Assembly: GCA_964636405.1 (NCBI GenBank)
Contig: CAZWSI010000007.1
Location: 1,697 to 65,696 of the forward strand
Length of the DNA: 64,000 nt
Origin: an uncultured Oscillospiraceae bacterium
GTDB lineage: Bacteria > Bacillota > Clostridia > Christensenellales > CAG-138
Direction: 5' to 3'
The notes under the pieces are model-generated. The model saw only the letters and a list, made by a program, of their open reading frames with translations. It had not been told where the DNA came from and did not search any database. The stretch's first letter is position 1; every line of letters starts with the position of its first letter. Made by a program: the position numbers and the translations under genes. Below are positions 30,619 through 45,987 of the stretch, piece after piece.

Positions 30619-31560
30619 ATGTTTTCCTGCGTGCGCAGCCATGGGTTGAGTGGGCTAACCGGCTTTCCCGTGCGCGTCGAAACGGACGTGTCAAACGGCC
30701 TCCCCGCCTTCGACGTGGTGGGCTTGCCCGACGCGGCCGTAAAGGAATCACGCGAACGCGTGCGCGCCGCCATGAAGAACGCGGGCTTCGTGTTCCCCGC
30801 CGCGCGCATTACGGTCAATCTCTCGCCTGCCGACATGCGCAAGGAGGGCAGCGTATACGACCTTCCCATCGCCGTTTCGCTGCTTGCCGCGTCCGGCCAG
30901 CTTCCGCAAAAGGAGCTGATGGATATCGTGTTCTTAGGCGAGCTTGCGCTCGACGGCGCGGTTCGGCCCATCGCGGGCATTTTGCCCATGGTCATCGACG
31001 CGGCGGCTGGCGGCGCGCGGCGCTTTGCCGTGCCGTGCGGAAACGCGGAGGAGGCCGCCTGTGCGGCCGGCGCCGAGGTGCTGCCTGTGCCGACCCTGCG
31101 CGCGCTTGTGGAGCATATGAACGGCGCTTCGCCCATTGCGCCCGGGCAATCGCGCGTTTGGCGCGGCGACGAGCTTATCTACGGCGCGGATTTTGCGGAT
31201 ATCAAGGGCCAGCAGGGGGCCAAGCGCGCCGCCGAGGTAGCGGTCGCGGGCGGGCACAATCTGCTGCTGATCGGCACGCCCGGCTCCGGCAAAACGATGC
31301 TTGCGCGCAGAATCCCGTCCATTCTTCCCGAGCTTAGCTATGAGGAAGCGCTGGAGATCACCAAAATTCATTCCATCGTGGGCGCGACCAAGGGTTGCGG
31401 ACTCGTGCGGGAGCGGCCCTTTCGCGCGCCCCATCACGGCGCGTCGTCGGCGGCCATGGTGGGCGGCGGCGCGCGGGCGCTGCCGGGCGAAATCAGCCTT
31501 GCGCATTACGGCGTTCAATTACAACCATGCTCGACATGCTGGGGATTGATGATTGCTTGA
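30619..31560 (+). pseudogene. comM: comM/yifB (Mg-chelatase-like competence ATPase), 5' part, interrupted after nt 31514
   Basis: Lon-like N-domain and Walker A GTPGSGKTM. Homology runs to ...GEISLAHYGV, then switches to unrelated sequence and a stop at 31560. The missing LFLDELPE... continues at 46550. Confidence 0.85.
31509..31514. repeat. left copy of the 6-bp direct repeat CGGCGT flanking the island
   Basis: Identical hexamer at 46544-46549; both lie on the comM reading frame break. Confidence 0.7.
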
Positions 31561-31585
31561 AAAGTGCCTAAAATTGGCACTTTTT
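31561..31585 (+). terminator. hairpin with T-run at the left edge of the island
   Basis: AAAGTGCC (31561-31568) / GGCACTTT (31576-31583), 7-nt loop, followed by TT. Confidence 0.5.
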
Positions 31586-31796
31586 CCCTACTGTGACGCT
31601 GGCTATCCACAGTTTAGGACGTGTGATTTAAGGCAAACAAGCTAATCTGCTGCTGTATTCGCGCAAAAACGGGGTGCATTTTGGCCGAAAAGTACAGCAC
31701 TGAATGTACTGTTTGGCAAAATGGTAACAATTTGACGAAACAGAAAAGTTGATATTCGTTTCGCGTATGGAGAAGACGAAAGGCGGATTATTGATA

Positions 31797-31826
31797 CTGA
31801 CAACTGCATAGCCGGTGTGGTATAAT
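31797..31826 (+). promoter_or_regulatory. putative promoter of the methyltransferase operon
   Basis: CTGACA (31797-31802), 18-bp spacer, TGg-TATAAT extended -10 (31818-31826); about 50 bp upstream of the first ORF. Confidence 0.5.
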
Positions 31827-31877
31827 CTAATATCGACACATTTTGTCATGTAACACATATTTTTGAGGAGATAGGCT

Positions 31878-32066
31878 ATGTTAGTATTCACAACAAAAAT
31901 ACCTCTAAAAGCCGATACTACGCAAAAACAATGTGTAGAGTTGTTTATTAAGTGGGTTTCAGATGCGTACCAGTATCCGTTTGCTTATCATGACTTTGCG
32001 GAATATGATTGCGAAGGACATCAGGACTTGACTATGCTCTGCACACATTTGATGGAGAAAAGGTAG
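31878..32066 (+). CDS. 62-aa hypothetical protein, first gene of the methyltransferase operon
   Basis: GAGGAG 7 nt upstream of the ATG; stop is 2 nt before the methyltransferase ATG; no recognisable motif. Confidence 0.4.
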   Translation: MLVFTTKIPLKADTTQKQCVELFIKWVSDAYQYPFAYHDFAEYDCEGHQDLTMLCTHLMEKR

Positions 32067-32068
32067 CT

Positions 32069-33265
32069 ATGGCAAAAATCGACGGACTAACTAATGCGAA
32101 ACATAATAAAAAGGATGAATTCTATACACAATATGATGTAATCCAAGATGAGATTAATGGATATTTAGAATTCGATGAGAATACATTTCGAGGTAAGACA
32201 GTACTACTTCCCTGCGACGATCCGGAATGGAGCAACTTTACACGCTTTTTTGCACAAAATTTTGAGACCTTAGGACTCAGAAAACTGATTTCCACTAGTT
32301 ATGCTCCAAATAGTAACAAAAACAGAAATCATCAGTACTCTCTTTTTGATATATCGGAGAATATGGAGAGTCCTGGTGATACGAGTGAAACAAGAGGGCG
32401 CATTTTCATTCTTGAGAGAGAGGCCAATAGTTCACGCAAGGTAGATATCAATGATTTGGAATGGTCATACCTTGATGGCGATGGCGATTTTCGAAGCTCT
32501 GAGGTTAATGAGCTATGCGATGAAGCCGATGTTGTGATTACAAACCCGCCCTTTTCACTATTTAAGGAGTTTTTTCAGTGGCTTATTCGTAAGAAGAAAC
32601 TATTTCTAATCATTGGCAGTCAGATGTCAATTACATATAGCGAGGTTTTTCCTTTAATTCAAGCAAACAAGGTTTGGTTAGGGCCGTCAATTCATAGTGG
32701 CGATAGAGAATTTCGAGTGCCGGATGATTATCCATTAAAAGCAGTTGGAAACAGAATTGATAGTTATGGAAATAAGTATATTCGTGTTAAGGGAGTAAGA
32801 TGGTTTACGAACCTTGATCACGGTCGTCGACACCAACCTTTGGAATTGATGACGATGGCAGATAACATCAAATACAGCAAACATAAGGAAGTGCGTGGTG
32901 TTGGCTATATCAAATATGATAATTACGATGTGATAGAAGTTCCATATACGGATGCTATACCTAAAGACTATTTGGGGATAATGGGTGTGCCGCTTACTTT
33001 TCTTGATAAGTATAACCCACAGCAATTTGACATTATTGGAAGCTCACAAACAGGATGTCACCCTGATTCAATGGTTCTTAGGAGTTATAAGGATTACAAG
33101 GGATACAAGCAAAACGGCAGCTTAACAGGAAGAACAGGCAGTACATGTGGGCATAACCCGATGATCCTGAAGAATGACGGTATTCACGATTACTATATGA
33201 ATAGTGAGGGAAGGACTGTGCAATCGGGTAACAGCAGGATATTTATTAGAAAGAGGGAAGAATAA
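32069..33265 (+). CDS. N6-adenine DNA methyltransferase, EcoRI-methylase-like family
   Basis: DEFYT motif near the N-terminus, VLLPCDD, catalytic VITNPPFS; start ATG 32069 (MAKIDGL) after GGAGAAAAGG. Confidence 0.8.
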   Translation: MAKIDGLTNAKHNKKDEFYTQYDVIQDEINGYLEFDENTFRGKTVLLPCDDPEWSNFTRFFAQNFETLGLRKLISTSYAPNSNKNRNHQYSLFDISENMESPGDTSETRGRIFILEREANSSRKVDINDLEWSYLDGDGDFRSSEVNELCDEADVVITNPPFSLFKEFFQWLIRKKKLFLIIGSQMSITYSEVFPLIQANKVWLGPSIHSGDREFRVPDDYPLKAVGNRIDSYGNKYIRVKGVRWFTNLDHGRRHQPLELMTMADNIKYSKHKEVRGVGYIKYDNYDVIEVPYTDAIPKDYLGIMGVPLTFLDKYNPQQFDIIGSSQTGCHPDSMVLRSYKDYKGYKQNGSLTGRTGSTCGHNPMILKNDGIHDYYMNSEGRTVQSGNSRIFIRKREE

Positions 33266-34440
33266 TGGATACGACGTTGCGTACCGATATAACCGTTGAG
33301 GAAGTGTGTAAAGGCTTTGTATATAATGAATTAGAAGGGAAAGGGCTTTTCGGATTATCGGGTAAACTAGTTATCCAACCTGAATACCAGCGCAACTATC
33401 TATATGCTGAAGCAAAAAAGGAAGAAGCTGTCATCAGATCGGTTTTACGAGGTTATCCGCTTGGCCTTATATATTTTAACAAGGTTGGCGATGAGAAATT
33501 CGAAGTCTTAGACGGCCAACAAAGAATAACTAGCCTTGGACGTTTTATAACTGGCAAGTTTCCTTTGTTTGACAAGAATGGTTTACCCCACTATTTTACT
33601 TCCATGCCTGAAGACCAAGTAAGAATAGTCAATGAAAAGAGACTTACTATATACATTTGCGAGGGAGAGGAAACAGAATTAAAGGAATGGTTTAAAACAA
33701 TCAACATTGAAGGAATTGCATTAAAGCCGCAAGAAATTGCCAATTCGGTTTACTGTGGCCCCTTTGTTACCAAGGCAAAAGAAGAGTTCAGCAATACGCA
33801 CAATGCAAATATTCAGAAATGGGGCGCATATATCAAGGGAAGTGTGAGCCGACAGGACTATTTGCGTGTTGCATTGGAATGGGTCACGAGAAGTCGAGAT
33901 GAAGACGTGATTGGCACATATATGAGCAAGCATCGATATGATAATACTATTTCTGAATTACGGGGATACTTCAGCAGCGTTATTGACTGGGTTTCTGGAG
34001 TGTTTTCTGATGTGAAGTCAGAGATGAGAGGACTAGAATGGGGAAGGCTATATGATGCATATCATTCTACTCCTTATGATCCGGCATATGTATCAACCCA
34101 AGTTCATGCGTTATACGCAGATGACTATGTGCATGATAAAAGGGGTATATTCGAGTATATCTTAGGAGGTTGTACTGACACGAGATTACTCGAAATTCGA
34201 CTATTTGAAGAATCGACAAAAAAAGCCAAGTATACGCAACAGACTGATGCCGCGAAAGCAGCGGGTGAGTCCAATTGCCCTCTTTGCGCCATTGGCCACG
34301 ATGCTAATGCAAAGCGCATATGGAATTTCAATGAAATGGATGCTGATCATGTAACAGCATGGACAAAAGGTGGAGCAACGAGTATTAAGAATTGCCAGAT
34401 GCTATGTAAAACCCATAATCGTGCAAAAGGAAACAAGTAG
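33265..34440 (+). CDS. DUF262 (ParB/Srx-like, GmrSD N-terminal type) domain fused to a C-terminal HNH nuclease
   Basis: IQPEYQRNY and LDGQQRITSLGRF (DUF262 signatures); C-terminal CPLC...DADHVTAWTKGG...NCQMLCKTHNRAKGN (HNH). TAATG overlap with the methyltransferase stop. Confidence 0.8.
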   Translation: MDTTLRTDITVEEVCKGFVYNELEGKGLFGLSGKLVIQPEYQRNYLYAEAKKEEAVIRSVLRGYPLGLIYFNKVGDEKFEVLDGQQRITSLGRFITGKFPLFDKNGLPHYFTSMPEDQVRIVNEKRLTIYICEGEETELKEWFKTINIEGIALKPQEIANSVYCGPFVTKAKEEFSNTHNANIQKWGAYIKGSVSRQDYLRVALEWVTRSRDEDVIGTYMSKHRYDNTISELRGYFSSVIDWVSGVFSDVKSEMRGLEWGRLYDAYHSTPYDPAYVSTQVHALYADDYVHDKRGIFEYILGGCTDTRLLEIRLFEESTKKAKYTQQTDAAKAAGESNCPLCAIGHDANAKRIWNFNEMDADHVTAWTKGGATSIKNCQMLCKTHNRAKGNK

Positions 34441-34476
34441 CACTCGATTGGGAAAGGTAAGTTGGGGGAGAAACAC

Positions 34477-34647
34477 ATGGCCGAGTTTTGCTTAGATTAT
34501 TTGAGAAAGCTGGATAAAAAGGACTACAAAAGATGGCAGGTGCGCCTGTCATTGACAAAGGACTTATGCGAAGGCTGTGGCGAGTGGAAAAGGGTAGTTA
34601 TGGGCTTTCGTGGAGACCGGCCGTGGTTCTTCTGGTGGTGGCGTTGA
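34477..34647 (+). CDS. small Cys-containing hypothetical protein with a Trp-rich tail
   Basis: GGGGGAG RBS before ATG 34477 (MAEFCLD...CEGCGEW...); ends 5 bp from the convergent HIRAN gene. Confidence 0.4.
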   Translation: MAEFCLDYLRKLDKKDYKRWQVRLSLTKDLCEGCGEWKRVVMGFRGDRPWFFWWWR

Positions 34648-34652
34648 CTGCA

Positions 34653-36272
34653 CTATTGTAAGCCGCCGGGAAACTGGATGATATTCCCCTGCGAGGAAAC
34701 AGCCCTTGAGATATAGACGGTAATGGGCGGTTTTCCTTCATAGCATGTCGGATCAACGCCAAGAATCGCATATAGCTTCTCGCCAGCATCCATCAACTGT
34801 GCTAACGGTGGGTTTTCGGCTTTGGGAATATACCCAAGCACATAGCCGTCCTCAGTAGTGACAAGGATTGCATTGCTATCGTATTTATTGTCCGGCTCCC
34901 GTTTAAGAAATAGCGTGTCCCCGTCCTCCAGTACACCGGTGACAACATCCATATCACGGAAAAATGTACCAGCAATTTCTGTGTCTAGGATGGGTTTATC
35001 AGCTACAGACGAGGAAACAGTAATGTCCCCGACATCAACATATCGCTGTTCTTTCTTGTCGTCCACCTTTATACCGAGCAGCCTCTTGATCCGTTTTGCG
35101 ATCTTGGGATCGGGTTCCGTTTCACAAGCCTTCTCCAGCGCCGGGATGACTGCACTCGACCATTGAGCGCGGATCAGACGTAGCGTCGTGATCGCTTCGA
35201 TACGCAAATCCTGAAATCTGGCTGACAGGCAGGAGCGGCATAACTGTTCGCATTCGAATTTGACGGTTTTCCGAGCCTTAAGAAGATAGATGAGCCATAC
35301 ATCCGGGCGGTGTTTAGGGGTAAGTTCATCTTTATCAAGGATTTCCGGCTTCTCCAGCACATCACTTGGGACAACGGACAGAATCCGCTCCGCGATTTCG
35401 GCAGCGTAGTTTTGTGGGTGGTCGATCAGAACAAACTTAGCAATGTCCATATCAAAGGGGTCTCTGTCCAGCATGTGCGAGAATGCCTCAAACGTGGGCA
35501 GCGGGAAGCTGTAATCAAAAGCGTATGAAGTCAGGACTTTGATGATAACGGCGTTGCTCTCTGTGGGTTCGTCCATTTCAGTTATGAGCCGATTCCATCT
35601 GTACTTATCCGAGCGTTGGTACTTCGCGCACTGATCCCGGATAGCGTTCTCATGATCGCTGCTCCAGCCGTTGCTTTTTTGGACATCGTCGCCGGACTGC
35701 TTCCAGAATGGAGTCATGGAATGGTCTATCAGGACAAGCGCGGATAAATCGATAAACTCCTTCACATGCTTCTCTGCCGCAGTCATGTACTTGTCAACGA
35801 GCATCCGACTAACCGCAAATTCCTTTACATCGGTTTCAAGAAAGGCGTATGTGAAAAGGCGGGACAGGGCATAGATACCCAGCTTAACTTCATTGATAAC
35901 AGCGCAGTCACGGGCCAGCATGAGCGCAAATCGGTATAGTTGGTCACGGTCGATTATCACCTCGTCACTGTATGATCTTATGCGACGCAAGAACGCCTTC
36001 GCATAGGTGAACTGCGGAATCATGCTCAAAGCGTTTGACAGTTCCTCAGTTACGATTTGCCGGGAAACGGCTTCAACTAGCAGATCGCAACACACTTTCG
36101 AGAACTTGTCCTGCATATCGCCGGGCATGTCATTCCGGAATAGTGTGTAAGCCACATCATCTTTCCCGGCGTGTAAAGCATCCTGAAATGCATACGGTGT
36201 GCCGGGTGTTGTCTCTAAACACTGGCAGATGAATTGATAAGCACTAATTTGTTTCTCATTTTTATCGCTCAT
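34653..36272 (-). CDS. 539-aa protein: helical (HEAT-like) region plus C-terminal HIRAN domain
   Basis: C-terminus GDTLFLKREPDNKYDSNAILVTTEDGYVLGYIPK matches the HIRAN signature; RIEAITTLRLI...IPALEKACETEPDPKIAKRIKRLLG looks HEAT-like; GGAGG 5 nt before the ATG. Confidence 0.75.
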   Translation of the reverse strand: MSDKNEKQISAYQFICQCLETTPGTPYAFQDALHAGKDDVAYTLFRNDMPGDMQDKFSKVCCDLLVEAVSRQIVTEELSNALSMIPQFTYAKAFLRRIRSYSDEVIIDRDQLYRFALMLARDCAVINEVKLGIYALSRLFTYAFLETDVKEFAVSRMLVDKYMTAAEKHVKEFIDLSALVLIDHSMTPFWKQSGDDVQKSNGWSSDHENAIRDQCAKYQRSDKYRWNRLITEMDEPTESNAVIIKVLTSYAFDYSFPLPTFEAFSHMLDRDPFDMDIAKFVLIDHPQNYAAEIAERILSVVPSDVLEKPEILDKDELTPKHRPDVWLIYLLKARKTVKFECEQLCRSCLSARFQDLRIEAITTLRLIRAQWSSAVIPALEKACETEPDPKIAKRIKRLLGIKVDDKKEQRYVDVGDITVSSSVADKPILDTEIAGTFFRDMDVVTGVLEDGDTLFLKREPDNKYDSNAILVTTEDGYVLGYIPKAENPPLAQLMDAGEKLYAILGVDPTCYEGKPPITVYISRAVSSQGNIIQFPGGLQ

Positions 36273-36316
36273 TTAGGCCTCCACTTGCGTAACCAGTCTT
36301 CACAGCCATCCGCCTG

Positions 36317-36508
36317 CTAAGAGTTGATTTTCGCTAGAATTTGCTTCTGCATATCGAGCAAAGAATCCAGTTTTGCGGATACCACATTCTCAAAGAATGA
36401 GTCGATCCGAGCCAGCTGCTCATGTGCCGAACCTAAACTGGCGCTCGTGTCTTCCATTCGCGCAGCTAAATCTGTTGCCATTTCGAGGATTTTTTCGTTA
36501 TTGGTCAT
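36317..36508 (-). CDS. 63-aa predicted coiled-coil protein
   Basis: ATGA start/stop overlap with the upstream gene; heptad-like Leu/Ala pattern; no known motif. Confidence 0.5.
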   Translation of the reverse strand: MTNNEKILEMATDLAARMEDTSASLGSAHEQLARIDSFFENVVSAKLDSLLDMQKQILAKINS

Positions 36509-36948
36509 CGTTCTGCCTCCCTACGCAACGCATTTGTTATTTCTAAGTAAAGCGGATATAACTGATCTGTCTCTATGAAATTTCCCTTAAGAGAGGCATT
36601 CCATAGATGGGGATTACTGCCTTTACAGAACGAGGCGTAAAACGGGTTCTCGTATCCGACATAAACAGGAGTGCCATCAGGAAACTGATCGCTTGTGATA
36701 TCAACAATCAAGCCAGCATTCTCAAGCCATGCGTGTGATAAGCTACAGCGTTCTTTTTGTATGTATTGATAATCGCCAAGGCCGGAAGCAGCTAGAAAGG
36801 CTCCTAACATGAGCGAAGTGCATCCGCACGTCCCATGCGGAAAGTGCGAAAATGGCAAGTAAATCCGACCAACATCGATGCTCTCAATAGCTTTGCGGAA
36901 TGATAAGGCAGCGGATTTAACTTTTGTTTGATACTCTGAGTCTGTCAT
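36505..36948 (-). CDS. 147-aa protein with Cys-His-Asp arrangement (transglutaminase-like / papain-fold candidate)
   Basis: GTCGCTSLMLGAFL (Cys at helix start), SHAWLE (His) and IVDITSDQF (Asp), in the order and spacing typical of transglutaminase-like cysteine peptidases; ATGA overlaps on both sides. Confidence 0.5.
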   Translation of the reverse strand: MTDSEYQTKVKSAALSFRKAIESIDVGRIYLPFSHFPHGTCGCTSLMLGAFLAASGLGDYQYIQKERCSLSHAWLENAGLIVDITSDQFPDGTPVYVGYENPFYASFCKGSNPHLWNASLKGNFIETDQLYPLYLEITNALRREAER

Positions 36949-37541
36949 GCTGTGGCATACTCCAATTCGGCGATGGTGTTCTGTACAACCTCATTATAAG
37001 GGTTTTGCGGCGAAAGCCAATCATTAATTCTGTCTTGCTGGATCATCACAGGCATCCGAGCATGGATCGACCTGATACTGTCGGCCGCGTCCATCGTTAG
37101 AATAGAGAAACAGGGGATGTGGTCTTTCGATGAACGGATATAGAGGCCAGCCATATAAAGCGGCCCGGATTTGGGTTTTATAGCATATTTGATTTTTTTG
37201 CCGTCTGCCTTTTGCCACTCGTAGTAGCATGAAGCGGGGATCAAACATCGGCGATCATCAATGCTTGTTGCAAACAACGCTTTTTCTGCCGCTGTTTCAC
37301 TCCTCGTATTGAAGACCAGCATGCCACGGGATGGATGAATAAAGCCCCATTTCATTGGGAAGGCATCTGGCTGACGATTCTTTGCGTTTGGAGCGATTAC
37401 AGTGGCGATATTAGTTGGTCGGACTTCTCCGGAAGCGACTAGAGGCACCTGCAAGCTGTCGGCGCGGCGTTGCGCCTCCGCAAAGTAACCGGCTAGTACA
37501 ACATCCGGGTCATCATCTGCGATATAATACCTGCCGCACAT
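36945..37541 (-). CDS. SRAP-domain protein (YedK/HMCES family abasic-site processing protein)
   Basis: N-terminal MCGRY (catalytic Cys2), NTRSET, RCLIPASCYYEW, IHARMPV motifs; GAGGAGG RBS. Confidence 0.85.
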   Translation of the reverse strand: MCGRYYIADDDPDVVLAGYFAEAQRRADSLQVPLVASGEVRPTNIATVIAPNAKNRQPDAFPMKWGFIHPSRGMLVFNTRSETAAEKALFATSIDDRRCLIPASCYYEWQKADGKKIKYAIKPKSGPLYMAGLYIRSSKDHIPCFSILTMDAADSIRSIHARMPVMIQQDRINDWLSPQNPYNEVVQNTIAELEYATA

Positions 37542-37561
37542 GAGAGCCTCCTCTCTTAATC

Positions 37562-38170
37562 CTAACGCGCCGTGAAGTGTTCCACCCTGTCAACCCATTT
37601 CAATGGGATTTCCCACAGTGTTGCCTGTATGATCTGCTCATCTGCACGGCCGTACAAATAATTGTCATCGGCAAGGTCTGTGCTGAAAATGCGTTGCCAG
37701 CTTTCTCTGAGTTCACCTCGAAGCTGAAGCATTGCATCGGTTTGGACGTCAAGGTTCTGCAAATCATGAAAAGTGTAGCCGCACTCTTTGTATTCGCTTT
37801 CAAAGCGCGAATCATCAGCCTCGTTAAGCGGGACGTAATCGCCATTGAACATAATGGTGTACGCATCGAAATTGGACAACACTACAGCGTTGCTTGGCGC
37901 ATTAAAGGTGATGCGTACAAACCTTTCACCTCTCATGCCATGCCCGCTAGAACGCAAATTCGGGCGCGGGTGCTTTTTGCCGCGCCACCAATACCACGCC
38001 CAGACGGGGAAATGTGTACCGGACGGCGGCGGGCCAAGTCGGAGTGTCATCTGCTCTGCCATCCACCGATAACACTCATATAGAGCGCCATCCTCCGGTT
38101 GTGCGAAAGTGAAAGCGTCATTTGCCCGCAGCGATCCCATGCGCTCCATTTCACGGTATCGCCGTATCAT
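37562..38170 (-). CDS. DUF3841-like protein
   Basis: YRWMAEQM...GPPPSGTHFPVWAWYWW... resembles DUF3841. Start uncertain (ATG 38170 or 38149); the 260-aa ORF-track version overlaps the upstream 72-aa ORF. Confidence 0.55.
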   Translation of the reverse strand: MIRRYREMERMGSLRANDAFTFAQPEDGALYECYRWMAEQMTLRLGPPPSGTHFPVWAWYWWRGKKHPRPNLRSSGHGMRGERFVRITFNAPSNAVVLSNFDAYTIMFNGDYVPLNEADDSRFESEYKECGYTFHDLQNLDVQTDAMLQLRGELRESWQRIFSTDLADDNYLYGRADEQIIQATLWEIPLKWVDRVEHFTAR

Positions 38171-38369
38171 AAGGTTCCTGATACTGCGTGATATACTCGT
38201 TGCGGTATGGAATCCGCGAAATCGCGAAACCTCTCCCGATACGGTTATATACGGAGCTTCCATCGACCGATAGCTCGTTCTTCTTTTGTACCAAGATTGG
38301 CTCGCATACGATAATGTTCGCCATACGCGGATCGTAAAGCACATACGAATCGCAGAGTATCCGGTACAT
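38151..38369 (-). CDS. 72-aa hypothetical protein, first ORF of the minus-strand operon
   Basis: AAGGAG 8 nt upstream of the ATG; no recognisable motif. Confidence 0.35.
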   Translation of the reverse strand: MYRILCDSYVLYDPRMANIIVCEPILVQKKNELSVDGSSVYNRIGRGFAISRIPYRNEYITQYQEPYDTAIP

Positions 38370-38520
38370 TTATAGCGCTCCTTTCCGGTAGGTGAACGTG
38401 ATTGAGCCAGTTCCTATGATTTCAACTTCCGTATCACCCTCCACGAGTACAAGCGAAGGCACGACATACCAGTTCGTTTTACACACACATAGGATCGCAC
38501 ACGCTTATGGGTAAACAAAA

Positions 38521-38550
38521 ACCGTCCGCCGGTTTGATCCGTCGGACGGT
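38521..38550 (-). terminator. bidirectional rho-independent terminator
   Basis: ACCGTCCG (38521-38528) / CGGACGGT (38543-38550) flanked by an A-run and a T-run; it separates the orphan 142-aa gene from the SRAP/HIRAN operon. Confidence 0.7.
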
Positions 38551-38618
38551 TTTTGTTCCGCTCCGCTATGGCCCTCGATATGACCAATAACAGATTTGTT
38601 GTTTGCCTAATGATTCGC

Positions 38619-39047
38619 TTAGTTGTGCATTGCCTTCTTTTTCAGAATGACGGTTTTAAACTTCCAGCCGTTCGCCTTCGCTATCTCCTTCACGGTTTTC
38701 GGGATGGCGCCAAGGTCAAAGTTGTATTCAAACACCTTGCCCTCGGGTCCGTACTGCACGCTCTTGACCTTGCGAAACAGTGTGCTACCGCTCTGGAAGG
38801 ACGATTCCCCGCTCATGCCAAAGGAAACACCCGCGCTAATCTCTGTGGTCTTTTCATACATATTGATCGTTTTATCCGACTCGTCTGCCAAAATCATTGA
38901 TTCATAGCGAATTTTCTTTTTACCCGTACTGAAACCTGCATCAAGCAATTCGACATCAATTGCAAGATCGGTATGGGCATCCGGTTTTGCTTGCACGCCG
39001 ATTGCGGCAAGCTGAGACTCGATTTGAGCAAGCATTTGTTGTTTCAC
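38619..39047 (-). CDS. 142-aa hypothetical protein (orphan, own promoter)
   Basis: GGAGGG 7 nt before GTG 39047; TGtTATACT extended -10-like element upstream on the minus strand; no known motif. Confidence 0.5.
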   Translation of the reverse strand: MKQQMLAQIESQLAAIGVQAKPDAHTDLAIDVELLDAGFSTGKKKIRYESMILADESDKTINMYEKTTEISAGVSFGMSGESSFQSGSTLFRKVKSVQYGPEGKVFEYNFDLGAIPKTVKEIAKANGWKFKTVILKKKAMHN

Positions 39048-39149
39048 CAGCGTACCCTCCAATTCGATTTGTTATAATGTAAGTATAACACAGTTCCGGT
39101 TGGTCAACAATTATTTTGCCCGGCGTTAGGGAATGACTTCAACCAAACA

Positions 39150-39180
39150 AAATGCACTTTCATGCAAGTACTGTGCATTT
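39150..39180 (-). terminator. hairpin downstream of the truncated XRE gene
   Basis: AAATGCAC / GTGCATTT 8-bp arms, 15-nt loop, T-rich tail on the minus strand. Confidence 0.45.
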
Positions 39181-39220
39181 GTTCGACCCCAATTTGAGAC
39201 GCTAGACGAACAGGGTGCCG

Positions 39221-39526
39221 TTACTCCTCTTTGCCAAGGGGTGACACGCCTACTGCCCGCAGATATTCGTTGCATTCATAGATCGAATTGTGTGTCATAG
39301 CACCGAGCAGTATTTGGTAAGCCAAGTGTTCCTCGGATTGGTTAAAGCATAACCCTGCCTTTCTGATTAGATCAGCTGCGAGAATCGGATGAAGCTTCAA
39401 TCCCACGCAAAGAGCAACGACCCTGGGTAGTGTGATGGCCGGGTATCCTCGCCTCTGTTCGTGCATATCACGAGGGACGGCACGGAACACAGGTGTGGGC
39501 AAACCGAGCTGCTTTTTCGGAGGCAA
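39221..39526 (-). pseudogene. C-terminal remnant of an XRE-type HTH regulator
   Basis: ITLPRVVALCVGLKLHPILAADLIRKAGL...YECNEYL resembles the second half of ~150-aa XRE-family proteins. The HTH-bearing N-terminus is missing and the 5' end abuts phage DNA. Confidence 0.4.
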
Positions 39527-39690
39527 CCGATCTGTTCCGGTTTCGGACGATTCCCGAACTGGAGGTAACCGAGGAGCATGTAATTGTCTGCGATACCGGA
39601 CGCTACCACATCATTTCGGCTGAAAACGTGCGTGATCGTGGCATGTATGTTGAAGTGCTTGCCAAACGAATCGAGGCTGCGCGTGGCTAG
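39493..39690 (+). pseudogene. C-terminal remnant of a phage head-closure / head-tail joining protein
   Basis: ...CDTGRYHIISAENVRDRGMYVEVLAKRIE resembles the C-terminus of head-closure proteins that precede HK97 gp10-like genes; the N-terminal part is absent. Confidence 0.4.
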
Positions 39691-40111
39691 AGTGACGATT
39701 TATCCCGGTAAGGATTTCTTGAAGAAACTGGAGCAGATGCAGGGCGATCTCGATCACGCGATCCCTACGGCTCTGGAGGAGGGCGGAAAACTGGTGCTTT
39801 CTAAGATGCATGGGAAATTGGCGTCTGTTGTTGGTAAGCACACGAAATGGCCGTCACAATCCAGCGGTAAGCTGCTCAAGGCACTGGGCCTTTCACCGGT
39901 GAAAATGAACGATACCGGCAATTTTGATGTGAAGGTTGGTTTCTCCGAGGGGCGGCCACGCAAGAGCAACGCTATGCTTGCCAACATCCTCGAATACGGA
40001 AAGCACGGACAGCCGCCTAAACCCTTCCTAGCGCCCACGAAGTCGCAAGCAAAACAGCCGTGCCTCGATGCGATGGAAGCGGCGTTGAAGAGGGAGTTGG
40101 GTATTAAATGA
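39683..40111 (+). CDS. HK97 gp10-family phage head-tail protein
   Basis: ANILEYGKHGQPPKPFLAPT motif typical of the HK97 gp10 family; GTG 39683 after GAGG. Confidence 0.7.
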   Translation: MARVTIYPGKDFLKKLEQMQGDLDHAIPTALEEGGKLVLSKMHGKLASVVGKHTKWPSQSSGKLLKALGLSPVKMNDTGNFDVKVGFSEGRPRKSNAMLANILEYGKHGQPPKPFLAPTKSQAKQPCLDAMEAALKRELGIK

Positions 40112-40464
40112 GCGTTCTGTCTGACTTAAAGGGGATCGTGACGGCGGCTGGGTTACCTGTGGAAACGGGCAAGTTCAGCGGGAAGGCTCCGGATGAATAT
40201 GCCGTGATCACGCCGCTTTCTGAGCAGTTTGCGCTGCATGCGGATAATGCGCCGGGGATCAACATTGAGGAGTACCGACTCTCCCTGTTTTCCAAGAGTA
40301 ATTACAACGTAAAGAAATGGCGGTTGGTACGGGCGTTATTGAGCGCTGATTTTACGATTACCGACCGCCAATATCTGCTGCCGGACGATATGTACGAACA
40401 GGACTCCGGCTATCACCACTACGCCATAGATGTGGCGAAAGCCTATGAACTGGAGGAGGAATAA
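40108..40464 (+). CDS. phage tail completion / tail terminator-like protein
   Basis: Position between gp10-like and major tail genes, ATGA overlap with gp10; assigned by synteny only. Confidence 0.45.
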   Translation: MSVLSDLKGIVTAAGLPVETGKFSGKAPDEYAVITPLSEQFALHADNAPGINIEEYRLSLFSKSNYNVKKWRLVRALLSADFTITDRQYLLPDDMYEQDSGYHHYAIDVAKAYELEEE

Positions 40465-40467
40465 AAT

Positions 40468-41343
40468 ATGGCTACAATCGGCCTTGATAAAATGTATTTT
40501 GCTCCAATTACGGAGGATGCGAATGGCAACGAAACCTACGGAACACCGGAGAAGCTGGCAAAAGCCATGACCGTCGAGATGGAGATCGAGGTGCTGGAGG
40601 CAACGCTGTATGCCGATGACGGCCCGGCGGAGAATGTTAAGGAGTTTGGCACCGGTAAGATCACACTGGGTGTGGATGACATCGGCATCAATGCTGCTGA
40701 AAAGCTCACTGGCGCACAGATCGACGAAAACCATGTGGTGATCTCTCAGAGCGAGGGCGGCGGTAAGCCGGTTGCACTGGGTTTTCGGGCTAAGAAGAGC
40801 AACGGCACTTATCGCTACTACTGGCTCTATCGGGTCGTCTTTGGTATTCCCGCAACGAACCTGACCACCAAGGGTGAGGAGATTACGTTCTCCACACCGA
40901 CCATTGAGGGTACGATCCTGCGTCGAAACAAGCTGGATGGCAACAGTCGGCATCCGTGGAAATCGGAGGTCAACGAGGATGATGTTACGGTTCCTCGCAG
41001 CGTGATCACCGGCTGGTATTCGCAGGTGTATGAACCCACGTTTGCAGCACCGGTGACGCTGTCGATTACTGCACAGCCGCAGGATGCGGAGGTGACAGAG
41101 GGCGCGATCACGGGTTCTATTGCGGTCACAGCCGCTGCTACCGGTGCAGTTCCGACCTATCAATGGTATCGGAATCAGACCGATAGCAATGTAGGTGGCA
41201 CAGCGGAACAGGGCGCGACGAATGCGAGTATGGCGATTCCCGTTGATCTCACATCCGGCGCGTACTATTTCTACTGTGTTGTAACGGCCGGGACGCAGAC
41301 ATTAGCGTCTGATCCTTGCACGATCACTGTGGCAGCTGGCTAA
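40468..41343 (+). CDS. phage major tail protein (phi13-like) with a C-terminal Ig-like decoration domain
   Basis: MATIGLDKMYFAPITEDANGNETYGTPEKLAKA N-terminus typical of phi13-family major tail proteins; C-terminal ...PTYQWYRNQ...YYFYCVV Ig-like segment. Confidence 0.8.
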   Translation: MATIGLDKMYFAPITEDANGNETYGTPEKLAKAMTVEMEIEVLEATLYADDGPAENVKEFGTGKITLGVDDIGINAAEKLTGAQIDENHVVISQSEGGGKPVALGFRAKKSNGTYRYYWLYRVVFGIPATNLTTKGEEITFSTPTIEGTILRRNKLDGNSRHPWKSEVNEDDVTVPRSVITGWYSQVYEPTFAAPVTLSITAQPQDAEVTEGAITGSIAVTAAATGAVPTYQWYRNQTDSNVGGTAEQGATNASMAIPVDLTSGAYYFYCVVTAGTQTLASDPCTITVAAG

Positions 41344-41354
41344 AGGAGGCAACT

Positions 41355-41771
41355 ATGTTGGATCAAGACAGATGCGCTGATATCACCATCGGCGGTCAGA
41401 CCTATCACATGGTGCTAACAACGCTTGCTACCAAGGAAATCAGCAAGCGATATGGCGGGTTGGAACAGCTCGGTAATAAGCTGCTTATGACGGAGAATTT
41501 CGAACTGGCGCTGGATGAAGTGGTGTTTCTGATCACGCTTTTGTGTAATCAGGGCATTATGATCGAGAACCTCGAAAACCCGACGGCTCCCCGTGGGCTT
41601 CTCACGGAACAAATGGTGGAACTGTTGACTACGCCAACAGACCTCATGCTTTGTAAGGATGCGATCATTGCAGCGATGCTGAAGGGCACGAAACGCTTTG
41701 TGGAGAGCGAATCGGGTAAAACAAAAAACGTGTTGGACGGGCAGACGACGGAGAGTCCTTTGCCCGATTGA
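41355..41771 (+). CDS. phage tail assembly chaperone (G-like, zero-frame product)
   Basis: AAAGGAGG RBS, position after the major tail gene, slippery site near the 3' end. Confidence 0.7.
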   Translation: MLDQDRCADITIGGQTYHMVLTTLATKEISKRYGGLEQLGNKLLMTENFELALDEVVFLITLLCNQGIMIENLENPTAPRGLLTEQMVELLTTPTDLMLCKDAIIAAMLKGTKRFVESESGKTKNVLDGQTTESPLPD

Positions 41772-41932
41772 TCTTTATCGGGGTTTCGCTGCTAGGCCGG
41801 GAGGAGCGTACTGTTTGGCTTATGCCGATTGGTGCGCTCCTCGATCAGTGGGAAGCCTACAAGCATTTCCACGGGATCGCCAAGCAGAAAGTCGTTCTGG
41901 CCATTGATGAATTGATCCCCAGCGGGATATAG
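41355..41932 (+). CDS. tail assembly chaperone GT-like frameshift fusion (join 41355..41729, 41729..41932)
   Basis: The -1 frame extension encodes ...LGREERTVWLMPIGALLDQWEAYKHFHG..., resembling T-segments of siphovirus chaperones. Confidence 0.55.
41723..41729 (+). promoter_or_regulatory. -1 programmed ribosomal frameshift slippery heptamer A_AAA_AAC
   Basis: Zero-frame codons ACA AAA AAC put the heptamer in the X_XXY_YYZ phase. The -1 frame is open from here to TAG 41930-41932. Confidence 0.6.
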
Positions 41933-41937
41933 ACGTC

Positions 41938-42180
41938 CTACTGGATGATCGCCTCAAGGTTTTCAAACAACGGGGAGTCAAAGAACTCCCGCATGGAAAT
42001 GTCCAGAGCATCGCAGATTTTCTGTAATGAAATGACACCGGGGTTCTGGCTCTTGGTGTTTAGCATGCTATAGATTGTCGAGGAAGACATGCCCGCAAGA
42101 TTGGCAAGTGCATTGACGGTCAGCTTCTCCTTCTTGCACAGTTCGGCGATTCTTGCTGCGACAGCGCCTTTTGCATCCAT
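41938..42180 (-). CDS. XRE-family HTH transcriptional regulator (80 aa)
   Basis: IAELCKKEKLTVNALANLAGMSSSTIYSMLN HTH; GGGAGGA RBS. Confidence 0.8.
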   Translation of the reverse strand: MDAKGAVAARIAELCKKEKLTVNALANLAGMSSSTIYSMLNTKSQNPGVISLQKICDALDISMREFFDSPLFENLEAIIQ

Positions 42181-42196
42181 ACAAACATCCTCCCAC

Positions 42197-42297
42197 TTGC
42201 GATATATCGCAACTAAAGTGTACGGAAAGCACGGTTTTCATGTTCGGGATATATCCCGAAACGCGAAAACTGTGTTACACTTATAGCGATATATCGC
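42197..42297. promoter_or_regulatory. divergent promoter/operator region with three GATATATC-core palindromes
   Basis: Perfect palindromes TTGCGATATATCGCAA (42197-42212), TTCGGGATATATCCCGAA (42243-42260) and GCGATATATCGC (42286-42297); TACACT -10-like hexamers on both strands. Confidence 0.55.
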
Positions 42298-42315
42298 AAA
42301 CTTGGAGGTGCAAGC

Positions 42316-42561
42316 TTGGTAAAACAGCTGGATGATTTGGAAATACAGCGCGTGATTCGGAAGACGGCCGCAGAGACCGGTTCAACGCCACAGCAGGTGC
42401 GCCGAAATACTGAGGAAATGCTGGCAGAGAGCCGCGCTTGCACTGATCCCAAGGCGAAGGCCGCATGGGCAGAAATCCCTTGTAACGGTGATGTTCCAAC
42501 GTTGGAAGAGGTGTTCCGTTATCTCGCGGAACGAATCGATAAGCAGATGAGCTACAAGTAA
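42316..42561 (+). CDS. 81-aa hypothetical protein divergent from the XRE gene (Cro-like position)
   Basis: GGAGG 6 nt before TTG 42316; followed by a strong terminator; no firm family assignment. Confidence 0.45.
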   Translation: MVKQLDDLEIQRVIRKTAAETGSTPQQVRRNTEEMLAESRACTDPKAKAAWAEIPCNGDVPTLEEVFRYLAERIDKQMSYK

Positions 42562-42590
42562 GCGAAACCAAATACCGAGAATTTACATAA

Positions 42591-42617
42591 GCGTCCCTTC
42601 GGGGGCGTTTTTCTTTT
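42591..42617 (+). terminator. rho-independent terminator (UUCG tetraloop)
   Basis: GCGTCCC-TTCG-GGGGCGT stem-loop with two G-U pairs, followed by TTTTTCTTTT. Confidence 0.7.
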
Positions 42618-42641
42618 GCGCTTCGGAAGGGGGTGTAGGAT

Positions 42642-43028
42642 ATGGCTTCTGACTTTGGCCTGAAAATCGGGCTGGAGGGTGAGCGCGAGTTCAAAACGGC
42701 ATTGAAGGAAATCAACCAGCAAATGAAGCTGCTGGGGTCGGAAATGAAGCTCGTGCAGTCTCAGTTTGGGAAAAACGAGAAAAGCGCTTCCTCGCTTACC
42801 GCACAGAACAAGGTGCTGACTAAGCAAATCGAAGAGCAGAAAACGAAGATCGAAATGCTCCGCACGGCTATGGTTACGCCAATGTCGATAGGGTCTATTT
42901 TGCCGTCTCCGTTCCAATCGATCATTTCGGTAAAGCCTCCTTGTTGCAGAACTTTAGAAATGCCGCCTTTGCTTTGTTCAGCGAACAGATCACGGCATCG
43001 ATGCTTTCCACATTCGAAAAAGACATAA
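42642..43028 (+). pseudogene. N-terminal remnant (~76 codons) of a phage tail tape measure protein
   Basis: MASDFGLKIGLEGEREFKTALKEINQQMKLLGSEMKLVQSQFG... is typical of tape-measure N-termini; the coiled-coil character is lost after about nt 42870. Confidence 0.5.
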
Positions 43029-43215
43029 TAGCGGGTGCCCGTGCAAAACGCGCATCGTCCATTTCGCGACCGTCACGGCTTTCCCAAACGCCGATTTTGC
43101 GAGGGGCGGGCGCGTTTTCTAACACGAGTATGCTGTGGTCATCGTCATAGGCAACGTGGAGATCAACATCTCCCTGCCCAAACTCCAGCCATGTTTGACC
43201 TTGTGTATGGATCAT
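42922..43215 (-). CDS. 97-aa hypothetical protein (last gene of the repressor operon)
   Basis: 10-bp gap to the upstream ORF; no known motif. Confidence 0.4.
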   Translation of the reverse strand: MIHTQGQTWLEFGQGDVDLHVAYDDDHSILVLENAPAPRKIGVWESRDGREMDDARFARAPAIMSFSNVESIDAVICSLNKAKAAFLKFCNKEALPK

Positions 43216-43225
43216 AGTAACTCCT

Positions 43226-43498
43226 TTAGGCTACTTTCGCTTCAACGAACCAGCGACCGATGGTATTCCCACAGATATTGGTGCTGCGCTCGAAATACAG
43301 ATACCGCTGCTGGCCGTTGACAGTGATGGTGTATCGATCACCTTGCCCGCCAACCTTCATAGCGGCAGCTTGCCGAATATCCGATACCCGGTCGATTTCA
43401 TAGCTGCGGCCATCTTCCCACACGATCTTTTCTGGGATCAGCTTTCCGGAGGAATCAAAACGTGCGTGTACTTCAACATAGGTCTTTACAATCTTCAT
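43226..43498 (-). CDS. 90-aa hypothetical protein
   Basis: 22-bp gap to the upstream ORF; beta-rich (KIVWEDGRSYEIDRV...GRWFVE); no family name assigned. Confidence 0.45.
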   Translation of the reverse strand: MKIVKTYVEVHARFDSSGKLIPEKIVWEDGRSYEIDRVSDIRQAAAMKVGGQGDRYTITVNGQQRYLYFERSTNICGNTIGRWFVEAKVA

Positions 43499-43520
43499 AT
43501 TCGTTCCCTCACGTTACTGG

Positions 43521-43748
43521 TTATAAGCCTTCGTCAACAGGTAGGATCGTCCGGTTCATTTGCTCACAGGGGCGGAGCCAGCCCTTGTTTACAAGGTTAT
43601 GGATATGGACATGAATGGTGGATGCGGAATGTAGGCCAATACCGTCAGCGATCTCACGCATACTGGGAGAGAAACGCTTTTCCTTCCGGTATTCGAGTAT
43701 ATAGTCATACACATCTTGCTCACGTTTTGTCATTTCGATTCTCTCCAT
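43521..43748 (-). CDS. stand-alone LexA-type winged-helix DNA-binding domain protein (no S24 domain)
   Basis: TKREQDVYDYILEYRKEKRFSPSMREIADGIGLHSASTIHVHIHNLVNKGWL aligns by eye with the LexA N-terminal domain; GGAAAGGAG RBS before ATG 43748. Confidence 0.65.
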   Translation of the reverse strand: MERIEMTKREQDVYDYILEYRKEKRFSPSMREIADGIGLHSASTIHVHIHNLVNKGWLRPCEQMNRTILPVDEGL

Positions 43749-43819
43749 AAAGCGCTCCTTTCCGAACAGCATACGCCATTTCTACCATTATGCTATTTCA
43801 CCTGTCCCATATACAGGTC

Positions 43820-44548
43820 TTAGCGAGGATACACGACTCTGCCGTAAATCTTCGTCTCGTTGTATTCCGTAATCGGAATGGGTTTGTACTTCGTATTGTG
43901 CGAAACAAGGAATGTGCCGTCTTCCGTGCGGCGAAACTCTTTGACAAAAGCATTCCCGTCAAGGAAGAAGATGCCGATCTCGCCATTTTCAAGCGTGGGC
44001 TGCATTCGTACCCAGATTTCCTGACCGTCCTCCAGCGTCGGCTCCATTGAATCGCCGCAGACATGAAGACCAAAGGTAGCGCACTCTGGCACATCGTCGG
44101 GGACTTCGACCATTTCATAGGAATCGCTGTCAAGGAATTGCCCAGTACCGGCCGCAGCGCCAATATCGAACATGGGGGCGGTACGCTTTCGCAAAGGTGC
44201 GACATTGTCTCTGATCTTAACCGGGGCGTATAGACCGCTTGCGATCAGCAGCTTCTTGTATTCCGCCAGCTTCTCAGCGCCTTCATGATTGAGCGAGTAT
44301 TCCAATTCGGACAGATCGCCGGTACCGAATATGCTGTAAACATCTTTTATCCCGTAGATATGGCATAGCCCTACAAACTGGTCAATAGCCGGATTGTTAA
44401 GCCCGGTCTCCCAACGGCTTACCTGTGCTTTGGTGGTTGGCATACCCAGTTCATTCAACCTTGCAGCTATGTCCTGCTGCAAAAAGCCATGGCTTTTTCG
44501 CAGCATTCGGAGGACGTCACTGTACTTTTTGTCCATCGCGTCATCCAC
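43820..44548 (-). CDS. XRE HTH + S24 peptidase repressor (phage CI / LexA-like)
   Basis: N-terminal HTH (GFLQQDIAARLNELGMPTTKAQVSRWETG); C-terminal S24 Ser/Lys dyad (VCGDSMEPTL ... FVKEF). Confidence 0.85.
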   Translation of the reverse strand: MDDAMDKKYSDVLRMLRKSHGFLQQDIAARLNELGMPTTKAQVSRWETGLNNPAIDQFVGLCHIYGIKDVYSIFGTGDLSELEYSLNHEGAEKLAEYKKLLIASGLYAPVKIRDNVAPLRKRTAPMFDIGAAAGTGQFLDSDSYEMVEVPDDVPECATFGLHVCGDSMEPTLEDGQEIWVRMQPTLENGEIGIFFLDGNAFVKEFRRTEDGTFLVSHNTKYKPIPITEYNETKIYGRVVYPR

Positions 44549-44606
44549 CTCCTATGGCTGCATTCTACTATGGCCGAAACAAGTTTGCAATAGAAAATCG
44601 CAAAAA

Positions 44607-44620
44607 CGAACACTTGTTGC
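44607..44620. promoter_or_regulatory. Cheo-box-like (Firmicutes LexA) operator candidate
   Basis: CGAACACTTGTTGC versus consensus CGAAC-N4-GTTCG, in the divergent region between the repressor and the polymerase fragment. Confidence 0.4.
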
Positions 44621-44673
44621 ATTACAAAAACTAGAAAAACGTGTTTTAATGTGCGTGAAAGGGGGGACATGGT

Positions 44674-45264
44674 ATGAGAGCGATATTGCACAGCGACTTG
44701 AATTGCTTTTATGCGTCAGTGGAGATGATGCTCGATCCCTCCTTGCGTGGAAAGGCGGTAGCGGTCTGCGGTTCTACCGAGAATCGGCACGGTATTGTGC
44801 TGGCAAAATCACAGCTTGCAAAACAGGCGGGCGTCAAAACCGGTATGGCAAACTGGGAGGCACGGGAAGCCTGTCCCGGGTTGATCGTCGTACCGCCGCA
44901 GTACGATCAGTACCTGAAGTATTCGGCACTTACCCGCGAGATCTATTATCGGTATACGGATTTGGTCGAACCTTACGGCATGGACGAGTGTTGGATCGAC
45001 GTCACAGGATCGCAGCGTGCTTACGGAACGGCGATGGAAATTGCGGAAGAAATCCGAAAAGCCACGCGGGAGGAGCTTGGGCTGACGGTCAGCATTGGTG
45101 TGAGCTTCAATAAGATTTTTGCCAAATTAGGCTCGGATATGAAGAAGCCTGACGCGATCACGGAGATCACGCCGGAGAACTTCCGTGAGAAGGTATGGCC
45201 GTTGCCAGCGTCAGACTTATTGTACCCTTCGAAATCAAAGATGCCGCCGCCGCGGTTTCGATAA
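44674..45264 (+). pseudogene. Y-family DNA polymerase (DinB/UvrX-like), N-terminal ~183 codons only
   Basis: ILHSDLNCFYASVE, MDECWIDVT, SIGVSFNKIFAKLGSDMKKPD and VWPLPASDLLY match the palm/fingers; homology stops near 45224 and a stop follows at 45264. Confidence 0.8.
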
Positions 45265-45734
45265 GGGCAGCAGCGCCGAAGCATTTTGCGACAGAGATTA
45301 TTCCGCAGATGCTGGTGCCCCAGAAGGAGGCAGATGTATATCCGGCTGTTATGCGCTTGATAGAAGATGATCATGATATGGCTGTGAAAACGAAGAAAGA
45401 ACTGCGGGGACTGCTTGAAGAAGGGAAAAAGGCTGATTTCCTAGCTCAATCATTTTTATATGCTATCACCAAAGACAACCGGGCACCGGCTTCCGAGCCG
45501 CCCACGCTGAGTGATAACCTTGCAAACTTACAGTCAATTCTTTCGAAGCTGTCCAAGCCTGTGGCTTTGGTGCCACCTGATGAATTGATGTCGCATGAGA
45601 TGATTTATGTGCAGGCGTTACCCAGTATCTGCATTCACTTGCGGTATCAGCATGAATGCCCTCCCTTCTGCACTGAAAGCGCGTTTCATAAGCGATCACC
45701 TCCTTCCCGGCGTATGATAGCGCATATTGGATAG
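45195..45734 (+). pseudogene. orphan ORF, probably a fragment of an unrelated gene joined to the polymerase remnant
   Basis: Open frame without a convincing RBS; the internal segment MAVKTKKELRGLLEEGKKADFLAQSFLYAI looks protein-like, but its ends are low-complexity. Confidence 0.25.
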
Positions 45735-45748
45735 ATGCGCAGCATATT

Positions 45749-45766
45749 TTCGGGATATATCGTGAA
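45749..45766. promoter_or_regulatory. fourth, imperfect copy of the GATATATC-core operator
   Basis: TTCGGGATATATCGTGAA differs at 2 positions from the palindrome at 42243-42260. Confidence 0.4.
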
Positions 45767-45987
45767 CACGTTTGCGGCATTAGCAATTCTGGGTTTCAAA
45801 TAGTGCAAAAGAGGTGTATAGGCAAGTAAAGAAACAGTATATAAATACATGGTATTCGTGGTAATCAATAACGCAAAAATTGGCTGTAGGTGTTGTGGTA
45901 AACCAAAAACAACACACACACTTACATATTGCATATTGGCGTATAGCGTGCTAGTCTGTGCATATAGAAACGAAAGGGGGAGCGACA

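Follow-up and report, generated by a model that had tools for sequence, protein, structure and literature searches.

A 64,000-nucleotide stretch of DNA from an uncultured Oscillospiraceae bacterium (the window; positions 1,697 to 65,696 of contig CAZWSI010000007.1) carries, one directly behind the other, a gene for an EcoRI-family DNA methyltransferase and a gene for a nuclease in which a DUF262 domain is joined to an HNH domain. Do these two genes form a restriction-modification (RM) system and, if so, is it a new one? An earlier reading that was made without database searches (the sequence-only reading) had described a three-gene operon, consisting of these two genes and a small open reading frame (ORF) of 62 amino acids (aa), and had proposed an uncharacterised RM or defence subtype. 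From sequence comparisons, we consider it decidedly probable that the window carries a two-gene, horizontally mobile RM cassette of the BanLI type, which would be cargo at one margin of a decayed prophage that interrupts comM.

The gene pair and its relation to BanLI

The elements that had been read from the letters were all recovered (Table 1). A promoter-like element and three ORFs with good ribosome-binding sites are present, a GA-rich Shine-Dalgarno sequence preceding each of the three. Two nucleotides separate the stop codon of the first ORF (ORF62) from the methylase ATG at 32069, and the methylase TAA and the nuclease ATG at 33265 share one nucleotide (TAATG). The protein motifs quoted earlier were likewise found: DEFYT (residues 16-20) and NPPF (residues 159-162) in the methylase, and IQPEYQRNY (37-45, with QPEYQR at 38-43), DGQQR (83-87) and the C-terminal series DADH (359-362), N376 and HN (384-385) in the nuclease.

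Table 1. Location of the gene pair, its domains and the surrounding features in the window (pI, isoelectric point; GC, guanine-plus-cytosine content)
Feature	Position	Strand	Evidence
Promoter-like site, sigma-70-type: CTGACA, 18-nucleotide spacer, TG-extended TATAAT	31797..31826	+	11/12 positions match
Orphan 62-aa ORF (ORF62), 7.4 kDa, pI 5.4	31878..32066	+	
EcoRI-family (PF13651) N6-adenine DNA methyltransferase, 398 aa, ATG 32069	32069..33265	+	Pfam and PADLOC
DUF262-HNH nuclease, 391 aa, predicted restriction subunit, R.BanLI homologue	33265..34440	+	Pfam and PADLOC
N-terminal ParB/Srx-like DUF262 (GmrSD_N, PF03235) domain of the nuclease, residues 36-163	33370..33753	+	Pfam E 4.4e-19
C-terminal zinc-ribbon HNH domain of the nuclease, residues 336-391	34270..34437	+	PF01844 E 2.7e-6 at residues 356-391
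Decayed low-GC prophage, ~15 kb, inserted in comM; RM cassette at left edge	31515..46545		GC 39-53% vs ~60% flanks

The methylase was assigned to the EcoRI family by both Pfam (EcoRI_methylase, E 3.7e-119) and PADLOC (MTase_II, PDLC03297, E 1.1e-88). Among 62 homologues, 57 of its residues were kept in at least 98% of the sequences, DEFYT and NPPF included, and three variable segments were observed at residues 81-120, 201-240 and 321-380. A search of the PDB with the methylase for a solved close relative gave no match. The EcoRI system has a methylase of the same Pfam family with the same order of motifs, and both would be two-gene Type II RM systems. However, the window nuclease is unrelated to the PD-(D/E)XK enzyme R.EcoRI, and GAATTC is an unlikely target.

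The nuclease matched the PADLOC model REase_II (PDLC03418) over its full length (E 3.8e-85, 284 bits, residues 10-391 on profile positions 9-372 of 372). The only relative that has been tested belongs to BanLI of Bifidobacterium animalis subsp. lactis, whose methylase M.BanLI makes RTC(m6A)GG on one strand (m6A, N6-methyladenine; PMC3990576). A REBASE enzyme of Bifidobacterium animalis with the specificity RTCAGG is annotated as a 'DUF262 domain-containing protein' (PMC13091528). No Bifidobacterium protein was among the best 120 homologues of an actinobacterial family member, and the BanLI locus was found by scanning metagenome contigs with the banLI.M 3'-end sequence from the published primer table. 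The recovered locus (L100) contains an integrase gene, M.BanLI and R.BanLI (372 aa), the end of the methylase and the start of the nuclease falling on the same position, 4589. The published 'RM.BanLI' forward primer atggcgaagcgagagac (MAKRET) corresponds to the beginning of the integrase gene upstream of banLI.M and not to banLI.M itself (L100 2200-3420; Table S1, PMC3990576).

R.BanLI scored 905 bits over the full PDLC03418 profile (positions 1-372 of 372), indicating that this model is in effect R.BanLI. On the same profile, the Gordonia pGKT1 type, a 382-aa member of an actinobacterial subfamily, reached 432 bits. In direct comparison by BLASTP, R.BanLI and the window nuclease shared 40% identity over 379 aa (E 2e-93), and M.BanLI and the window methylase shared 43% over 329 aa (E 2e-74). 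Each sequence-level mark of a BanLI-type pair was thus found in the window, namely homology to R.BanLI, a PF13651 methylase, and a gene order in which the methylase lies upstream and is coupled to the nuclease. The proposal of an uncharacterised subtype was not borne out, as a full-length PADLOC model of a Type II restriction endonuclease already exists and corresponds to R.BanLI, and BanLI has been studied genetically. The more general proposal, an RM-like pair with a nuclease outside the classical PD-(D/E)XK fold, is supported by the DUF262-HNH composition of the nuclease and by the linked methylase.

Gene order and protein architecture agree well between the two loci. In both, the EcoRI-family methylase comes first and the start of the nuclease overlaps the methylase stop. 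The nuclease is built end to end as a DUF262 domain, a helical middle and a zinc-ribbon HNH domain, and both loci adjoin genes of mobile elements and have a GC content below that of the host. The differences place the window pair in another subfamily (284 versus 905 bits on the common profile). In the window nuclease, an insertion of 16 residues precedes the HNH core, and position 384 is a histidine, as opposed to an aspartate in BanLI and a cysteine in most relatives. In addition, the variable segments of the window methylase and its C-terminal tail of ~70 residues differ from those of M.BanLI, and its specificity is therefore probably not RTCAGG. An integrase gene precedes BanLI, whereas the orphan 62-aa ORF precedes the window pair. 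As judged from these comparisons, the pair is a divergent relative of the catalogued BanLI RM system and not a new kind of system.

Linkage, spread and methylase number

Linkage of the two genes was counted in 62 loci that offered at least 1250 bp upstream of a nuclease homologue. An EcoRI-family methylase gene was located upstream on the same strand in 61 of them. It was directly adjacent in 57 loci and separated from the nuclease by inserted genes in four, all of which belong to Moraniibacteriota; a single locus had none. In most loci, methylase stop and nuclease start overlap (-4 or -1). A PF13651 methylase was also immediately upstream in all five divergent representatives of 50% clusters, and pairwise distances among methylases and among nucleases were correlated (Spearman 0.43). 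Copies of the pair were also located on plasmids, namely one of 9 kb in Moraxella, megaplasmids of Enterococcus faecium and actinobacterial plasmids, some of these copies sitting beside toxin-antitoxin genes, and in Flavobacterium phage laban6-1, where the pair adjoins tail genes. The sequence-only reading had made the pairing conditional on conserved linkage in other genomes. As the linkage is conserved across loci, plasmids, a phage and divergent representatives, the pairing stood, and we concluded that the two genes constitute an obligate two-gene module.

The nuclease family is large. At least 8000 clusters were obtained in each of two separate searches, a profile search of 1.84 billion representatives yielded 701 nuclease clusters at 50% identity (E<=1e-30), and a scan of 185,579 species genomes gave at least 590 nuclease-matching stretches. 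The best 80 of these at least 590 loci, with identities of 64-77%, came from Clostridia, Bacteroidales, Spirochaetia, Chloroflexota, Patescibacteria, Alphaproteobacteria, Omnitrophota and others, and among the matches listed nuclease identity across distant phyla was 64-78%. This degree of identity, together with a GC content of 39-40% for the two genes in a host of ~60% GC, points to horizontal transfer.

Nuclease subfamilies were uniform in length (386-394 aa), while the partner methylases varied both in length (351-550 aa) and in sequence. Mean pairwise identity was lower for the methylase than for the nuclease (57% versus 72.5%). A nuclease that is steadier than its methylase is the reverse of the usual Type II pattern, in which nucleases diverge faster. 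Two deviating gene arrangements were also noted. In one locus (L096, 3001-5067; P0282), a 688-aa gene call joins the C-terminal part of the methylase to a full DUF262-HNH nuclease; this is either a genuine fusion of methylase and nuclease or an artefact of frameshift or read-through, and translation of the locus did not reproduce the query protein. In Moraniibacteriota of the candidate phyla radiation (L037, 1771-7164; also L042, L031 and L038), the DUF262-HNH nuclease gene is separated from the methylase gene by two closely packed genes, one for a 607-aa OLD/AriA/GajA-like ATPase and the other for a coiled-coil protein of 420 aa, which suggests a four-gene variant of the system.

A single methylase gene was present in 76 of 79 loci, and this state appears to be the norm of the family and not a degenerate one. 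The one-methylase norm therefore argues against the published view of BanLI as an 'incomplete' Type IIS system that has lost its second methylase. The other three loci (L055, 3525-7167; L018; L034) carry two tandem EcoRI-family methylase genes ahead of the nuclease (M1-M2-R) with overlapping stops and starts. M1 and M2 share 53% identity, most of their differences falling within or next to the variable segments. M1-M2-R is the Type IIS pattern for asymmetric sites, and this minority of the BanLI-type family shares the possession of two diverged methylases with FokI, HgaI and MboII. In methylating one strand of an asymmetric site, BanLI is similar to Type III, MmeI-like IIL and BREX systems. 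The standard BanLI-type form differs in that it contains no helicase or translocase and no fusion of methylase and nuclease.

The nuclease and its probable mode of action

Conservation of the nuclease extends along its entire length, with 134 of the 391 residues kept in at least 98% of 62 homologues. In a set of 126 diverse members, Q42-R43, D83-G-Q-Q-R87, D361-H362, N376 and N385 were invariant or nearly so. The HNH domain comprises C338xxC341, D361-H362, N376, C381xxH384 and N385, and the residues C338, C341, C381 and C/H384 likely form a zinc site. Since position 384 is a cysteine in most relatives, the histidine of the window protein is probably a zinc ligand and not a catalytic residue. 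For the same reason, the aspartate at this position was rejected as a defect behind the weak activity of R.BanLI.

The AlphaFold (AF2) model of the nuclease (predicted local distance difference test score, pLDDT, 83) starts with an alpha/beta domain at the N-terminus, continues through a long helical middle and ends in a small beta-beta-alpha unit. Its top neighbours in the PDB were the CTP-binding N-domains of ParB, Noc and KorB, followed by BrxU, sulfiredoxin and the Gme HNH nickase 4h9d; all of these matches were weak (E>=0.02). Sequence searches of the PDB (phmmer and profile) with the nuclease gave no solved structure of a close relative and returned only BrxU (E 0.9), exactly at the QR and DGQQR motifs. 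In BrxU, Q101 and R102 of DGQQR are required for hydrolysis of nucleoside triphosphate (NTP) and for defence, and the protein is switched from one to the other of its dimeric and monomeric states by nucleotide binding, ahead of cleavage by its C-terminal nuclease (PMC8565348). As the DUF262 domain of the window nuclease keeps the NTP-binding and hydrolysis motifs of GmrSD and BrxU, we infer that it belongs to an NTP-gated HNH endonuclease. By this analogy, the enzyme is probably NTP-regulated and not a simple Mg-only enzyme of Type IIP.

The resemblance to GmrSD, BrxU and SspE consists of an N-terminal ParB/Srx-like DUF262 domain with QR and DGQQR motifs and a C-terminal His-Me finger nuclease. 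However, the similarity is limited to the two motifs (E 0.9 versus BrxU), and the window nuclease has ~390 aa versus ~580-600 aa. Of the features that define GmrSD, DUF262 with DGQQR was found (PF03235, E 4.4e-19), but DUF1524 (PF07510, DHxxP) was not, Pfam giving the PF01844 HNH domain. The GmrSD-like PADLOC models HEC-05 and HEC-06 matched short stretches of DUF262 only. GmrSD is also encoded as a stand-alone gene without a cognate methylase, whereas the methylase was linked in 61 of 62 loci and in five of five representatives. Because of this obligate linkage to a cognate methylase, the window nuclease is presumably blocked by modification and not dependent on it.

Further known systems were compared. 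An Ssp system (SspABCD-SspE) is not indicated, as the neighbouring genes encode HIRAN, SRAP and DUF3841 proteins, tail proteins and repressors, and no Ssp or Dnd model matched. With regard to Menshen (NsnABC), the NsnA model matched only the DUF262 part of the nuclease (residues 33-173), and the window contains neither an NsnB ATPase nor an NsnC partner. Naming the pair from the papers on GmrSD, His-Me finger nucleases, BREX, Dnd and Menshen was also considered and rejected, as the pair is described in none of them. No biochemical or structural study of the DUF262-HNH nuclease family was found in the literature searched.

As an RM cassette of the BanLI type, the pair would act as follows. The EcoRI-family methylase would mark a short target in host DNA with m6A. 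Like the RTCAGG site of BanLI, this target may be an asymmetric one that is marked on one strand; the specificity probably differs from that of BanLI. The DUF262-HNH restriction subunit would cut unmarked DNA through its zinc-ribbon HNH site (H362, N376, N385), and NTP binding and hydrolysis by the ParB-like DUF262 domain would probably gate this cleavage. Translation of the methylase ahead of the nuclease, which would be coupled to it through TAATG, should favour protection before cutting.

Several points weigh against this classical direction. Characterised DUF262 proteins read modified, not unmodified DNA: GmrSD, BrxU and SspE are described as modified-DNA sensors, and SspE needs host phosphorothioate marks (PMC12065111; PMC12707154). 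BanLI restricts weakly, the cloned locus giving an efficiency of plating of ~0.1 for P1vir (PMC3990576), and the construct used in the plaque assay apparently carried the integrase as well. In addition, an intact nuclease is located beside an IS256-truncated methylase on plasmid B of Microbacterium sp. No. 7 (L089, 2438-4188), and in a member of Bdellovibrionales (L023) an intact nuclease has no methylase within 10 kb. Neither situation would be expected of a Type II enzyme with strong toxicity, although those genomes may encode a methylase at another place.

These observations are what an SspE-like logic would draw on, in which the DUF262-HNH protein would sense host m6A and thereby be licensed for NTPase-coupled nicking of invading DNA, the methylase being an activator. 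As a classical RM system BanLI is weak, intact nuclease genes persist where the methylase is truncated or missing, and most loci have a single methylase, which in BanLI marks one strand only. However, methylation of plasmid DNA by M.BanLI raised transformation (1.8-fold; PMC3990576), and P1 phage from hosts without M.BanLI was restricted, both of which correspond to the classical direction. The window protein also has a plain zinc-ribbon HNH domain without DUF1524 and is ~200 residues shorter than SspE or GmrSD. We therefore regard an SspE-like system as improbable and retain the RM cassette.

Within the RM reading, we tentatively consider, as a possibility with the odds against it, that DUF262-HNH enzymes represent a mechanistically distinct restriction class. 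In such enzymes, a ParB-like NTP switch would couple the recognition of an unmethylated, possibly asymmetric site to HNH cleavage, and the switch could act via dimer-monomer cycling or clamp-like sliding.

Genomic setting and meaning of the cassette

The RM genes lie in an island that splits comM/yifB (Mg-chelatase-like). The N-terminal fragment of this gene (30619-31560) corresponds to positions 1-109 of the Mg_chelatase profile and the C-terminal fragment (46548-47177) to positions 109-206. The split is exact at Pfam position 109, with the protein junction ...SLAHYGV | LFLDELPE. PHROG matches identified remnants of siphovirus-type tail genes in the island (tail completion, tail terminator, major tail and a tape-measure fragment). 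It also encodes an S24-peptidase/HTH (helix-turn-helix) repressor (43820-44548), a small LexA_DNA_bind protein (43521-43772) and a truncated Y-family polymerase with an IMS domain (44674-45264). No integrase ORF of at least 70 aa was found in the island, and no direct repeats of at least 10 nucleotides were found at its ends as attachment sites. The interruption of comM, the low GC content and the remnants of tail genes indicate that the cassette is cargo of a decayed prophage.

This location raises the question whether the cassette chiefly serves the mobile element, as a weapon or addiction module (by superinfection exclusion, post-segregational killing or attack on the host's DNA, the DNA of the element itself being methylated), with host defence as a secondary effect. 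The pair is found on a prophage remnant, in phage laban6-1 and on many plasmids, in some cases by toxin-antitoxin genes; its GC content is far from that of the host, and the identity of 64-78% across distant phyla implies frequent transfer. Nevertheless, this would be the same RM biochemistry seen from the side of the element and not a different molecular mechanism. Moreover, both RM genes have stayed intact and keep every conserved residue in a prophage that has decayed, suggesting selection in the host. We consider a chiefly selfish role quite unlikely. That the two genes are chance neighbours, a GmrSD-like Type IV nuclease beside an unrelated orphan methylase, is hardly credible: DUF262 is a domain typical of Type IV enzymes, and phages commonly carry orphan methylases of the EcoRI family, but the linkage described above, with its overlapping stops and starts, its persistence in divergent representatives, one fused gene call and the correlated distances, effectively refutes it. 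An RM cassette of the BanLI type thus remains the reading that we prefer.

The three-gene operon of the sequence-only reading held by position but not as a system, as ORF62 has neither a family match nor a homologue. No match was obtained in Pfam, NCBIfam, PADLOC or PHROG, none by tblastn in plasmids or phages at E<=1, and the ORF was absent from more than 80 related loci. Its sole match among 5.8 billion proteins was itself, on two contigs of one strain. A role as an additional part of the system could thus not be upheld, and ORF62 was also rejected as a controller protein or conserved third component. The HTH that marks Type II systems under control of a C protein was not found in it, nor was any other family match, and no small ORF upstream of the methylase was conserved across the loci compared. 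In a few loci (L011, L016, L031), an XRE-type HTH ORF unrelated to ORF62 abuts the methylase and resembles a classical controller protein. ORF62 would be a strain-specific leader ORF or a chance ORF outside the conserved two-gene system. The promoter-like site ~50 nucleotides upstream of ORF62 was the top-scoring one in the region 31400-34800, but the number of such sites in this region was not elevated (11 versus 8.5 +/- 2.9 in shuffles), and a function as promoter is suggested only by the location upstream of ORF62.

Immediately downstream of the nuclease lies a Cys/Trp-rich ORF of 61 aa (34462-34647) without a family match. The identical contigs L001 and L003 have the same gene call, and the ORF is missing from the other loci. 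On the minus strand beside the RM genes (34653-38344), a 539-aa protein with a C-terminal HIRAN domain, a 147-aa ORF, an SRAP (SOS-response-associated peptidase) protein and a DUF3841 protein are encoded. The 539-aa protein had weak matches to PADLOC PDC-M03B, restricted to the HIRAN part, and the HIRAN-SRAP-DUF3841 block may be a further defence or DNA-damage module.

For the organism, these results suggest an RM barrier that was acquired horizontally and, as predicted from its genes, is apparently functional; such a barrier bears on genetic tractability and phage sensitivity. The nuclease family as a whole is large, well conserved and nearly always paired with an EcoRI-family methylase, and may hide an NTP-dependent restriction mechanism. 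In this family, the DUF262/ParB module, which usually goes by the description of a modified-DNA reader, serves widely in a methylation-protected RM setting. The one-methylase norm reopens the question of how BanLI-type enzymes handle single-strand methylation in daughter duplexes after replication. If DUF262-HNH enzymes were indeed a distinct restriction class, a single methylase acting on one strand could keep the newly replicated chromosome guarded in the manner of Type III, IIL and BREX systems and would need no helicase to do so.

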